Source: a virus. Taken from it: DNA of 16,618 nt. The position numbers and the translations under genes were made by a program. Position 1 is the first letter of the stretch; each line of letters starts with the position of its first letter. Shown here in pieces: positions 5,522-8,675 of this stretch. The notes under the pieces are model-generated. The model was not told the DNA's origin. It made no database searches and was given only the letters and a program-made list of their open reading frames with translations. The stretch is taken from the UHGV virus genome UHGV-0216076. One strand, given 5' to 3'.

Positions 5522-5536
5522 GACTTCCCTCTCCCC

Positions 5537-5569
5537 CAAATAAAAAGGCCTGCGATTACCAGCAGGCCT
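5537..5569 (-). terminator. tR2-like intrinsic terminator upstream of ninB
   Basis: Minus strand: hairpin AGGCCTGC/GCAGGCCT (8-bp stem) followed by TTTTTATTT; sits between the replication gene and ninB, where lambda tR2 lies. Confidence 0.6.
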
Positions 5570-5598: not shown

Positions 5599-7479
5599 TT
5601 AATACTCTGTCACGTTTTCCTGTCGCCACGCCTCGTCATATTCCGATTTCGGCATATTGGCGATGTAGCTATATGGCGATCCTGATTCAAGTTGCAGGAA
5701 CTGGTGCGATTGCTCGTCAAGGAACAACGGGACACCACCTTCCCAACCTTCACCGTTACGTTGTTTTTCAAGCATCAAAACAGATGCCGGAGATGCCAGT
5801 AGCTGTTCGTCCTTCTCTGACATCTTTTCACCACTCTGAACTCTCTGTAACGCTCTCTCGCGAGCCTTGTTACGCCAGATGATGAAAAGGTTGTCTGTCA
5901 GGTCTGTTATCGCTCCAGAGCCTTTTACGTCCATTTTCCCGGTTGGTTTTTCTTCGCTGTCTCCTTTTCGCGAGTGAGTAACGAGAATGACGTGGGAGTT
6001 TGTTTTGTTTTTGAAGTCGCAAATCGAGTCAACAAACGCCTTCTGCCCGTTATAGTCATCGTCGCCTATGCCACATTTCATCAGGCTGTCGATGATGAAT
6101 AACTGGATGCCGTATCGGCGGCGAGCGTAGTCGAATATTTCGATCAGCCTGTCGGCTTTCGCCGTTCCGGTCAGGCCAAACACCCAAAGTCTTTCGTCAT
6201 AAAATTTAAATGCAGAGTCAATTTCCAGCACTGGCGGCATCTTGCAGCACGTTGCCTGACGGGTAAGTCGCTTAAGGAGAATGCCTGGCTTCAGCTCAAG
6301 TGACGCGATGCACGTCTTCACACCCTGACGCATTGCCTCAAGTGCCATATGCCCGACAACCTCCGTTTTTCCGTGACCGTTCACACCATTGACCAGCGTC
6401 AACTCGGCCTCACGGAACTGGAATTTATCTGCGAGAGATTCCCACGGTGGATTAAACAGATACTGCTGCTTGCCGTAGAAAGCGTTGATAGTGTCCTGGT
6501 AAAACTCTCGCGCGCTGTAGAGTTCTTCAGGATCGAAGTAGGATGCCGTGCCGATGTACTGCCAGATTTCATCCTCGGTAACACCGTTCATCAGGCATTC
6601 GTTGATGTCTTTGTACGGCAGAGTAACAAGACGGCAACGATGTTCACCGAGTCGGCTTGCGATTTCCCTTGCGGCTTCACGACCAACATCATCAACGTCC
6701 ATCGAGATGAATATTTCCTCAAACCTGTCGAGGTTGTGATACTCAAACTCAATCCACTGTTGCTTAGCGCCTTTCCCGCCACCAAACGGCACGGATAACG
6801 CCGAGATGCCGTATTGCGCATAGCTCATACAATCAATTTCGCCTTCGCAAAGTACAACCGCCCTCACGCCAGCGTCCAGAGCCTGCCATCCGAACAGACA
6901 AGGTTCGCAATCACCTTCTGCCATAATGACTTTCTTCCCGTCCGGGCGCTCAGTGCTGATTCGCTTGACCTGCAACAACTCACCATCGCGTTTGTACGGA
7001 AGCACCAGTGCATCAAGTTCTCGTTCTCCATTCCACACCTTGCCGCTGACAACCTCGTAGCGCTTTACGATTTCTGGCGATATGCCACGCGATTGCAGGT
7101 ACTCAAGATGGGATTCTGTTCTGGTAACGTAGCGGGCGATTTTCTTGCGATCAGGTCTGGAGAATTTCTTCTCACGTTTGGCATCGAAATGGTGATCGTC
7201 ATCCTTGATACCGAGAAATGCTTTCGCTTCCTGCATAGCCTGATGCAGGTTAATTCCACGACATGCCATCCACAAATCAAGCATGTCACCGCCGTCTCCC
7301 TCAGCGAAATCAGCCCATTTTTTCTTGCCGCTAAGGTTGACCTTAAGGCTGTTTCCCTTGTCACCGTTGACGTTACCGGCAACCCACTCATGCCCCTCTT
7401 TCTTGCCGTTTGGCAACAGGTGCGGAGCCACCCTGTCAACCTGCGCCCAAAGCAGGTCGCTAAGTTCACTTGGCCTCAT
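5599..7479 (-). CDS. Replication protein: TOPRIM primase fused to an SF4/DnaB-like helicase
   Basis: 626-aa ORF; TOPRIM-like acidic motifs (VLCEGEIDCMSY, ISMDVDDVG); Walker A GVNGHGKT and Walker B LFIIDSL in the C-terminal half; GAGGG SD; occupies the lambda P position. Confidence 0.75.
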   Translation of the reverse strand: MRPSELSDLLWAQVDRVAPHLLPNGKKEGHEWVAGNVNGDKGNSLKVNLSGKKKWADFAEGDGGDMLDLWMACRGINLHQAMQEAKAFLGIKDDDHHFDAKREKKFSRPDRKKIARYVTRTESHLEYLQSRGISPEIVKRYEVVSGKVWNGERELDALVLPYKRDGELLQVKRISTERPDGKKVIMAEGDCEPCLFGWQALDAGVRAVVLCEGEIDCMSYAQYGISALSVPFGGGKGAKQQWIEFEYHNLDRFEEIFISMDVDDVGREAAREIASRLGEHRCRLVTLPYKDINECLMNGVTEDEIWQYIGTASYFDPEELYSAREFYQDTINAFYGKQQYLFNPPWESLADKFQFREAELTLVNGVNGHGKTEVVGHMALEAMRQGVKTCIASLELKPGILLKRLTRQATCCKMPPVLEIDSAFKFYDERLWVFGLTGTAKADRLIEIFDYARRRYGIQLFIIDSLMKCGIGDDDYNGQKAFVDSICDFKNKTNSHVILVTHSRKGDSEEKPTGKMDVKGSGAITDLTDNLFIIWRNKARERALQRVQSGEKMSEKDEQLLASPASVLMLEKQRNGEGWEGGVPLFLDEQSHQFLQLESGSPYSYIANMPKSEYDEAWRQENVTEY

Positions 7480-7586
7480 GATTCCCTCAGATTGAGATTT
7501 TTAAACCAGAAATCGACAAACGAAATACTTAACCAGCCGTGGTTATAACCAGCGACCAGTAACGATTTGATTTTTGATTTCATGGT

Positions 7587-8447
7587 TCACCTGTCGAAAA
7601 ACACGTAGCCAGTTTTCGATACGGTGATTGCGGATGATGGTTTGGATTGTGGTTGAATGGTTTCTGGCTTTTCGTCGTTCCAGCGCTGACCGTTCAGGTA
7701 GCTCGATGGTAACAACCTGTCGAATCCGAACTGCTTACCATTCCTGCATGCGATGTCTTCTGCCAGCATCGTGGCAAACTCGCTTGCCGTACCCCTGGTA
7801 GTTTTACGCCATTCCCTGAACTGTGTTCTGAATGCCGAAGCTGCGTTTTTCTTCCCGGCCTTCCGCATGCCTGCACACCAGAATATTTCCTCGAATGCCT
7901 TGTCGGTTTCTTCGTGACGGTCAGATGATTTTTCACACTCCGTCCGAACACTTTCGGACATAGTGTTTTTATTATTTCTTTTTTCTTTTGTAATAGTTTC
8001 TTTTGTGTGTCCCTGTTTTGGTGACAGCGCTGTCACCGTTTTGGTGACACTTTTTGTCACCAATGCAGTGACATTATCACCAGAGTAGTGACACCCTTCG
8101 ATTTGCCATTCCTCGATGTTCTTGTTAGGCCCGATTTGCTGGCCTTCGCGAAGGATAACCTTCATCGCGATAAGCTCATTCTTGGCCTTGTTTACCTTCT
8201 GTCTTGGCAGCCTGGTAATTTGAGCTAACTGACTATCAGAGATGCGATCCATCTTTTTACCGTAGCCGTATGTTTTACGGCATATGGCGTGGGCAACCTT
8301 GCTCTGATTTTTCGTTAAATCTGCGCCGATAAGCTCTTCATACAGGGCATTTGCAAGACGGGTATAACCATCTTCAACTTCTGCCACACGACGCTCCACA
8401 GGCCGTTGTGAAGGCCTTAAATGTGTTACGGTTGCAAGATTACTCAT
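7587..8447 (-). CDS. Replication initiator with lambda O-like N-terminal origin-binding domain
   Basis: 286-aa ORF; N-terminus ([56 protein letters not shown]...GPNKNIEEW) parallels the lambda O N-terminal domain as recalled; C-terminal half unlike lambda O; iterons lie inside the gene. Confidence 0.8.
7962..8100. repeat. Putative origin of replication inside the initiator gene: iteron-like GGTGACA/TGTCACC repeats next to an AT-rich tract
   Basis: At least seven copies of GTGACA/TGTCAC-type half-sites between 8020 and 8094 (e.g. GGTGACAGCGCTGTCACC), flanked at 7962-8010 by a T-rich segment; same layout as lambda ori (iterons then AT-rich region within O). Confidence 0.6.
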
Positions 8448-8596: not shown

Positions 8597-8675
8597 GTTG
8601 ATAGATCCAGTAATGACCTCAGAACTCCATCTGGATTTGATCAGAACGCTCGGTTGCCGCCGGGCGTTTTTTATT
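8597..8675 (+). ncRNA. oop: OOP antisense RNA homologue (antisense to the cII 3' end)
   Basis: Sequence GTTGATAGATCCAGTAATGACCTCAGAACTCCATCTGGATTTGATCAGAACGCTCGGTTGCCGCCGGGCGTTTTTTATT matches lambda oop as recalled, including the terminator; -10 CATAAT at 8584-8589; the -35 position lies in replaced DNA. Confidence 0.5.

Follow-up and report, generated by a model that had tools for sequence, protein, structure and literature searches.

A lambdoid replication module with a primase-helicase in the place of lambda P: gene content, predicted in-gene origin and mosaic ancestry

The origin of phage lambda, ori, is an experimentally defined replication origin (PMC7466680), and iterons of differing specificity located inside the initiator gene are a known pattern of lambdoid origins (PMC8022706, PMC7466680). 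Some relatives of this system carry no P: the modules of P22 (gene 18/gene 12) and of Erwinia phage phiEt88 combine an O-type initiator containing internal iterons with a replicative helicase of the phage (PMC8022706). The replication region of epsilon34 and ES18 has been described as encoding a putative helicase along with an origin binder homologous to O (PMC2629481), and P22-like phages have three types of replication module, among them one with an ES18-like primase-helicase, as reported in a paper on the Anderson typing phages (PMC10307801). Here we describe the replication module of UHGV virus genome UHGV-0216076, which was analysed as one window of 16,618 nucleotides (nt). All genes of the module are on the minus strand, and all coordinates are those of the whole window.

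The module is an ordinary lambdoid replication module of an already sequenced type, in which a primase-helicase stands in the place of lambda P. We consider it probable that a lambdoid phage or prophage uses it for early-right replication, that it belongs to the type for which the Salmonella phage ES18 provided the first annotation, that it arose by recombination, and that it operates by the mechanism proposed below. The gene content, homologies, iteron architecture, half-module junction and co-inheritance of parts on which this reading builds are directly established. Modules of this type, origins inside the initiator gene and mosaicism among lambdoid phages were all known before, and no new principle emerges from this locus. 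New here are an explicit iteron set for this specificity class, a correction that brings these iterons into register with those of lambda, and a mapped junction between the two halves of the module.

Gene content and relatives of the module

The module comprises four intact open reading frames (ORFs), and not just the two, initiator and primase-helicase, of the original prediction. In the direction of transcription these are an ORF of 48 amino acids (aa) at 8586-8440 (Pfam DUF2740, E 9e-29; phrog_1913), the replication initiator of 286 aa at 8447-7587, a small ORF of 35 aa at 7583-7476 (MKSKIKSLLVAGYNHGWLSISFVDFWFKNLNLRES; phrog_21848, E 4e-26) and the primase-helicase of 626 aa at 7479-5599, which is of the T7 gp4/Twinkle type and belongs to phrog_239. 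The two larger ORFs are exactly as they had been predicted. The initiator is composed of a lambda O-type N-terminal domain (N-domain, aa 1-150) and an ES18-type C-terminal half (C-half, aa 158-286). The stop of the DUF2740 ORF overlaps the start of the initiator gene, 4 nt lie between the initiator stop and the start of the 35-aa ORF, and the end of the latter shares an ATGA with the start of the primase-helicase gene; judging from the reading frames, the four genes appear to be tightly coupled translationally. No P homologue is present directly after the initiator gene, as the interval from 7587 to 5539 holds only the 35-aa ORF and the primase-helicase gene.

The same gene order is seen in ES18 (gp58-gp61), where a small ORF is followed by an O-like initiator with an internal origin, a 35-aa ORF and a 626-aa primase-helicase. 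Regions of the ES18 type are also found in epsilon34 (genes 49-53), g341c and vB_SosS_Oslo. This module type has been annotated in ES18 since 2005, and the GenBank record of ES18 includes a 'rep_origin similar to lambda ori'. The elements that characterise it, namely a C-half of phrog_33384, an ORF of phrog_21848 and a protein of phrog_239, are all present in the window and in this order. At the protein level, the 626-aa protein is 94% identical to ES18 gp61, which is annotated as 'putative primase/helicase; similar to phage T7 gene 4'; the 35-aa ORF corresponds to ES18 gp60 (94% identity), and the initiator C-half shows 96% identity to ES18 gp59 and 61% to its counterpart in LMessi.

The 35-aa ORF accompanies the C-half and the primase-helicase in every locus examined, and 17 of its 35 positions do not vary among ES18, LMessi and Fraca, in the last of which it is unannotated. 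The DUF2740 ORF is 98% identical to the ORF found upstream of O in phage PhiR12_2_star. It carries the label 'tail protein' in PHROG 1913 and in the RefSeq re-annotations of mEp043, Sf101 and SEN22, which looks like a propagated mislabel, because the ORF is situated between cII and the initiator gene.

In megablast searches, the block from 8586 to 5599 matched mEp043 and Sf101 at 98.8% identity, vB_EcoP-720R6 at 99.4% and SEN22 at 92%. It is also present in 298 of 5,426 complete Escherichia coli genomes (∼5%), in several of them at 100% identity. The identical copies in E. coli chromosomes, and a primase-helicase match broken into three pieces in some Shiga toxin (Stx) phages, might suggest that the module is a decaying prophage remnant without function. 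However, we regard this as very improbable, since none of the four translationally coupled ORFs is disrupted and since mEp043, Sf101 and vB_EcoP-720R6, which carry the module at 98.8-99.4% identity, are plaque-forming phages.

The Stx phages concerned, vB_EcoP_24B, Min27 and Stx2a_F451, carry the same C-half (∼96% identity) and primase-helicase, with the match in three pieces spread over ∼3.7 kilobases. The labels of the genes at the split match, 'O' and 'P' in some records or 'helix-turn-helix domain-containing protein', suggest a different N-domain (PF13730) and either an insertion or a mis-annotation. The Eru1-3 replication types of Stx phages were also considered as a class for the module. 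They have been described as combining a superfamily 2 (SF2) helicase with a separate Toprim protein, or an O-like with a DnaB-like protein (PMC8044961, PMC8951638); as so described they differ from the module, and no named Eru type could be matched to it from these texts.

The candidate origin within the initiator gene

A repeat search revealed four direct repeats of 19 base pairs (bp) between 8008 and 8093 within the initiator gene, each consisting of 7-nt inverted arms around a 5-nt spacer, and belonging to the specificity class TGTCACC-N5-GGTGACA. Written on the coding (minus) strand and in the order TGTCACTACTCTGGTGATA, TGTCACTGCATTGGTGACA, TGTCACCAAAACGGTGACA, TGTCACCAAAACAGGGACA, these are iteron 1 (TGTCACT ACTCT GGTGATA, 8093-8075), iteron 2 (TGTCACT GCATT GGTGACA, 8073-8055), iteron 3 (TGTCACC AAAAC GGTGACA, 8049-8031) and iteron 4 (TGTCACC AAAAC AGGGACA, 8026-8008). 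Successive units start 20, 24 and 23 bp apart, exactly as ITN1-4 of lambda do (39034, 39054, 39078 and 39101), and in a MAFFT alignment they fall in register with the four iterons of lambda. The lambda units (ATCCCTC AAAAC GAGGGAA) have the same 7-5-7 architecture, but the arms differ.

The clustering of these repeats is far beyond chance. The hexamer GTGACA occurs 14 times in the window, with six of the occurrences inside 8021-8093, where the background rate would predict 0.035 in 73 bp (Poisson P ∼3e-12). The longer pattern TGTCAC-N7-GTGACA, with up to two mismatches, has five matches, of which four are at the origin; 0.66 were expected, and none of 200 shuffles reached five. The remaining match, with two mismatches (TGTCACCGTTGACGTTACC, 7359-7377, plus strand), is located in the primase-helicase gene and was rejected as a fifth iteron, as its occurrence is at the chance level given by the same expectation of 0.66.

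In the original prediction this cluster had been read as a series of dyads, which are indeed present as quoted: GGTGACAGCGCTGTCACC at 8020-8037, GGTGACACTTTTTGTCACC at 8043-8061, AGTGACATTATCACC at 8067-8081 and AGTGACAC at 8087-8094. The cluster itself is thus real, but the dyads correspond to the junctions of adjacent 19-bp iterons. The binding units could still be the dyads, GGTGACA-spacer-TGTCACC, in which case initiator dimers would straddle the gaps between the lambda-registered iterons. The perfect 18-bp palindrome at 8020-8037 and the good 19-bp dyad at 8043-8061 speak for such an arrangement, and the half-sites are common to both ways of dividing the cluster. However, the dyads would be built around spacers of 4, 5 and 1 nt, and the two outer half-sites would have no partner, whereas the lambda-registered division yields four units of constant 7-5-7 geometry which align with the annotated iterons of lambda at identical spacing. 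The same 7-5-7 units are also found in phiEt88. We therefore consider binding to the dyads improbable and refer in the following to the four lambda-registered iterons.

The iterons are followed, in the direction of transcription, by an AT-rich tract with 17% G+C (7967-8007, minus strand), as had been predicted. It is near-identical to the AT-rich tract of lambda ori (ACACAAAAGA.ACTATTACAAAAGAAAAAAGAAA), and we presume it to be the DNA-unwinding element. Iterons and AT-rich tract lie downstream of the sequence for the N-domain, in register with lambda ori, so that the prediction of a lambda ori layout with a different iteron specificity is borne out by the alignment and by the differing arms. 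By analogy with lambda, the iteron cluster and the AT-rich tract would together constitute the replication origin of the phage. An origin feature is annotated neither in the feature table of PhiR12_2_star nor under the matches in mEp043, Sf101, vB_EcoP-720R6 and the E. coli prophages.

The specificity of the arms appears to follow that of the N-domain. Lambda, with arms of the TCCCTC type, has an N-domain that is 50% identical to that of the window; phiEt88, with TGTTACC arms, has one that is 55% identical; and PhiR12_2_star has identical arms and an N-domain of 100% identity. Comparison of these three phages therefore indicates that a different N-domain goes with different iteron arms on a constant architecture. 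The phiEt88 iterons (in the O gene, 2875-2945) are 7-5-7 units of the form TGTTACC-N5-GGTAACA, with one base per arm different; the ACACAAAAGA motif recurs after them, and the partner of this initiator is a DnaB-like helicase.

As the repeats encode a Val-Thr-rich linker, and as the phage is of a type without an experimentally mapped origin, the cluster might be a mere coding feature or a relic, with the working origin elsewhere. This would leave unexplained why the cluster is homologous to lambda ori in position, spacing and flanking AT-rich tract (PMC7466680), why, between lambda, phiEt88 and the window, a change of N-domain is accompanied by a change of arms under a constant architecture, and why the repeats cluster so far beyond chance. 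We thus give it hardly any credence.

Directly after the AT-rich tract, the repeat search identified an imperfect palindrome at 7935-7966, with 14-nt arms that are 86% complementary and 4 nt between them. ES18 carries the same sequence, whereas the corresponding position in lambda is occupied by another palindrome. The palindrome therefore seems to belong to that half of the origin which goes with the C-half and its partner.

The initiator and its putative primase-helicase partner

The N-domain of the initiator is clearly of the lambda O family. Residues 20-114 match Pfam PF04492 (Phage_rep_O) at 128.8 bits, relative to a cut-off of 28.7 (E 1e-37), and TIGR01610 is matched at 105.4 bits, relative to a cut-off of 45.5. 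Identity to lambda O is 50% over aa 1-150, or 49% over residues 1-157 by BLASTP. Beyond aa 157, BLASTP detected no significant similarity to lambda O, and the best local alignment covers 12 of 43 residues. The PHROG profiles matched by the C-half (phrog_33384, 270, 9327 and 9474) do not overlap with those matched by the C-half of lambda O (phrog_2357, 391, 2514 and 9773). With these disjoint sets and the loss of similarity past aa 157, the predicted combination of a lambda O-like N-domain with an unrelated C-half holds. In terms of O-type initiators, the protein has the N-domain and the in-gene origin, but not the lambda-type C-terminal domain that binds P. A Pfam search with the C-half at E <= 10 gave no matches, and a PDB sequence search with the initiator returned nothing relevant (best match E 0.53).

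The 626-aa protein in the place of P combines a TOPRIM domain with a superfamily 4 (SF4) helicase domain, as had been proposed. Its Pfam matches are Toprim_2 at aa 209-296 (E 3e-12) and AAA_25/DnaB_C at aa 355-594, with AAA_25 reaching 28 bits against a cut-off of 27, and the PHROG profile phrog_239, 'DNA primase/helicase', is matched with E 3e-171. The best relatives of solved structure are T7 gp4 (E 3e-23, in a single alignment over aa 192-539) and Twinkle (E 7e-14). The TOPRIM motifs EGEID, DxD and KD(I/A)NE, the Walker A motif GHGKT, the Walker B motif FIIDSL and the H3 histidine all align to T7. The acidic TOPRIM residues E212, E214, D216, D261, D263 and D291 are conserved across 29 sequences and likewise align to T7. 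A conserved C-terminal extension of ∼90 aa (phrog_23248/32971) goes beyond the T7 gp4 layout.

The N-terminal part was modelled with AlphaFold from a 29-sequence alignment (aa 1-322), with a predicted local distance difference test (pLDDT) score of 91.7. In Foldseek searches this model matched 2au3, the zinc-binding and RNA polymerase domains of Aquifex DnaG, with E 2.5e-13, as well as the T7 primase fragment 1nui, 5guj and the isolated DnaG zinc-binding domain 1d0q. At the sequence level the N-terminus matches TIGR01391 at positions 27-155, whereas a Pfam search at E <= 10 gave no matches. Of the features that define the T7 gp4/Twinkle group, the protein thus has the TOPRIM polymerase domain and, in the same polypeptide, a C-terminal SF4 helicase domain; it does not have the Cys4 zinc-binding domain.

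In the alpha protein of P4 the primase is of the archaeo-eukaryotic type, and the helicase belongs to SF3. This protein had been suggested as a comparison for the 626-aa protein, but it is unlikely to be a relevant one: Pfam and PHROG point to a primase of the TOPRIM type and a helicase of the DnaB/SF4 type and to nothing else. At E <= 0.01, the Pfam matches are limited to Toprim_2, AAA_25 and DnaB_C, and the PDB matches to chains of T7 gp4 and Twinkle. A P4 alpha-type architecture is thus unlikely, as judged from the Pfam, PHROG and PDB matches.

The C-half, the 35-aa ORF and the primase-helicase behave as a unit in evolution, as this trio occurs behind at least three different N-domains. In the window it follows an O-type N-domain of TGTCACC specificity, in ES18 and epsilon34 an N-domain of the lambda O type, and elsewhere helix-turn-helix N-domains of the PF13730 types; in Fraca and LMessi the trio is placed behind a non-O N-domain, at 61-62% identity. 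The C-half may therefore act as a partner-specific adaptor, a role for which co-inheritance, although not absolute, is the main evidence.

The following mechanism can be proposed. The N-domain of the initiator, presumably as dimers, would bind the four in-gene iterons, and the resulting nucleoprotein complex would stress the adjacent AT-rich tract so that it melts; both steps are proposed by homology to the lambda origin (PMC7466680). The C-half, possibly helped by the translationally coupled 35-aa protein, would then recruit the presumably hexameric, T7 gp4-like primase-helicase of the phage. Direct recruitment by the C-half is suggested by co-inheritance only. Finally, the primase-helicase would unwind the DNA and probably prime it, as its conserved catalytic motifs indicate, and a host polymerase would elongate the primers. 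This last step would replace the lambda route through P, host DnaB, release by DnaK/DnaJ/GrpE, and DnaG, and replication could thus be independent of host DnaB and DnaG.

Several findings weigh against parts of this mechanism. The DnaB_C match reaches 23.8 bits and so stays under its cut-off of 27. Around residue 500, the T7 sequence 'DLRGSGA' reads 'DVKGSGA', with Lys for Arg, in this protein, and Lys is also found in the homologues; the T7 residue at this position is, we assume, the arginine finger R522. The zinc ligands of the DnaG/T7 zinc-binding domain are absent from residues 1-95, where the only Cys or His residues are H20, H30, C73 and H79, all of them outside the ligand positions, and the zinc-binding domain of T7 gp4 is needed for template-directed priming. 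For the initiator C-half, AlphaFold worked from a shallow alignment of 13 sequences and gave a model with three predicted helices and a pLDDT of only 56, and the adaptor role of the C-half consequently depends on co-inheritance. This co-inheritance has exceptions: Vibrio phages carry homologues of the C-half (∼44% identity) without a primase-helicase downstream, and in Vibrio phage D59 (3126-4362) the homologue is followed by a 173-aa protein that is weakly P-like (phrog_109, E 2e-4). The pairing of C-half and primase-helicase is therefore not universal, and D59 rules out that it is exclusive. Finally, no experiments on this origin, its proteins or the module type were found in the searched literature.

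The missing zinc ligands bear above all on the question of priming. No conserved Cys/His column is present in the N-terminus of the 626-aa protein and its 28 homologues down to ∼40% identity. T7 gp4 is not known to prime on templates once its zinc-binding domain is missing, and human Twinkle is not known to act as a primase. Hence the 626-aa protein may be a helicase only; its primase part would then lack activity or serve a structural purpose, as in metazoan Twinkle, and host DnaG would make the primers. On the other hand, the acidic TOPRIM residues and the motifs of the RNA polymerase domain are invariant or nearly so in the homologues down to the same identity. The zinc-free N-terminal domain is itself strongly conserved (LLPNGK, G..G.S, DF and GD..DLW), which argues for selection on function, and the predicted fold of the primase part is, with high model confidence, that of a complete DnaG zinc-binding and RNA polymerase domain. 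A helicase-only protein is therefore a possibility to be reckoned with, but we judge it to be clearly the less probable one.

Taking this evidence together, helicase function of the 626-aa protein is well supported by homology, through the matches of its SF4 motifs. Primase function is likely but less certain, because the catalytic residues are conserved while the zinc ligands are lacking. The original claim that the phage brings its own primase and helicase is accordingly better supported for the helicase; for the primase it is plausible but less secure, because an N-terminus resembling a zinc-binding domain is here without zinc ligands.

We also put forward a tentative extension of this mechanism, which we consider possible but not probable. 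The C-half and the 35-aa protein might form a dedicated loader, placing a T7 gp4-like primase-helicase onto a lambda-type theta origin without a loader of the P or DnaC type and without release by chaperones. The zinc-free module might define a primase subfamily that chooses its priming sites differently, and the AT-rich tract might serve both as unwinding element and as a recombination joint, allowing origin specificity and helicase choice to reassort freely.

Flanks, junction and comparison with known systems

A four-way alignment with lambda, ES18 and PhiR12_2_star shows two ancestries within the module. From 8589 to ∼7998 the window is 97-100% identical to PhiR12_2_star (in 40-column windows), and the two match base for base on to ∼7975. 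From ∼7958 onward, the window is 87-100% identical to ES18. The half-module junction consequently maps to ∼7960-7985, inside the shared AT-rich tract. By these alignments the module arose by recombination between two known half-modules, with the joint inside this conserved tract; the first of them, as in PhiR12_2_star, comprises the DUF2740 ORF, the N-domain and the TGTCACC iterons, and the second, as in ES18, comprises the C-half, the 35-aa ORF and the primase-helicase.

The module is embedded in lambda sequence on both sides. Upstream, 97% identity to lambda extends across the cII 3′ end and the ribosome-binding site of O, and lambda-identical sequence stops at the ATG of the DUF2740 ORF. 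Downstream, from 5 nt past the primase-helicase stop, there is one mismatch to the lambda ren-ninB spacer, including its hairpin and T-run. The lambda flanks and the terminator before ninB were thus predicted correctly, but these comparisons place the replaced block at 8586-5599, slightly larger than the interval starting at 8447 that had been delineated before. Nor does the lambda cII/O ribosome-binding site directly serve the initiator gene, as had been thought; this site and its ATG start the 48-aa DUF2740 ORF.

The next gene after the primase-helicase gene is ninB (5539-5081, minus strand; Pfam E 1e-54). Upstream of it lies an intrinsic terminator hairpin (AGGCCTGC...GCAGGCCT) with a T-run at 5536-5569 on the minus strand, which we take to be lambda tR2, a name that is absent from the lambda record retrieved. 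A second strong terminator-like hairpin with a T-run is seen on the opposite strand at 8643-8670 (plus), inside a block that is 97% identical to the 3′ end of lambda cII. From this homology, it is presumably the terminator of the oop antisense RNA. When the whole window was scanned against Rfam, none of the families attained its gathering score, and no RNA element was therefore called.

For practical purposes the value of these results is modest. They provide a precise origin prediction for a prophage replication module present in ∼5% of complete E. coli genomes. In addition, lambda, ES18, PhiR12_2_star and the window phage form a natural two-by-two set, in which the N-domain tracks the iterons and the C-half tracks the helicase system. 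These phages therefore represent ready-made chimeras with which the host-factor needs (DnaB, DnaC, DnaG, DnaK/J/GrpE) of each half of the initiator could be determined.

With regard to the primase-helicase, T7 gp4 and Twinkle have the same domain order as the 626-aa protein and the same fold in the primase part, but the structural alignments show only ∼16-27% identity. The T7 origin is transcription-primed, and unlike T7, the 626-aa protein is encoded next to a predicted theta-type, initiator-dependent origin. In P22 and phiEt88 the partner of the initiator belongs to the DnaB family of helicases and has no primase domain, and the initiator C-halves differ from that of the window.

The description of the module as 'non-lambda' was overstated, as the origin architecture, the AT-rich tract and both flanks are homologous to lambda. 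Lambda and the window have in common the O N-domain family, the in-gene ori, the iteron spacing, the AT-rich tract and the flanking sequences. They differ in the iteron arms (TCCCTC/GAGGGA in lambda, TGTCACC/GGTGACA in the window), in their unrelated C-halves, and in the genes that follow, as lambda has P and Ren, whereas the window has neither and instead has the primase-helicase and two small ORFs. ES18 differs from the window in its lambda-specificity N-domain (52% identity) with lambda-type TCCCTC iterons, in an upstream small ORF that encodes a different protein, and in the extra genes gp62 and NinA before NinB. PhiR12_2_star represents the converse case, with an N-domain, iterons and most of the AT-rich tract identical to those of the window, followed from this tract onward by a lambda-type C-half, P and Ren at 93-100% identity to lambda (in 40-column windows). 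Across the window, lambda, ES18 and PhiR12_2_star, all four combinations of N-domain and iteron type with either P or a primase-helicase as partner therefore exist in nature.

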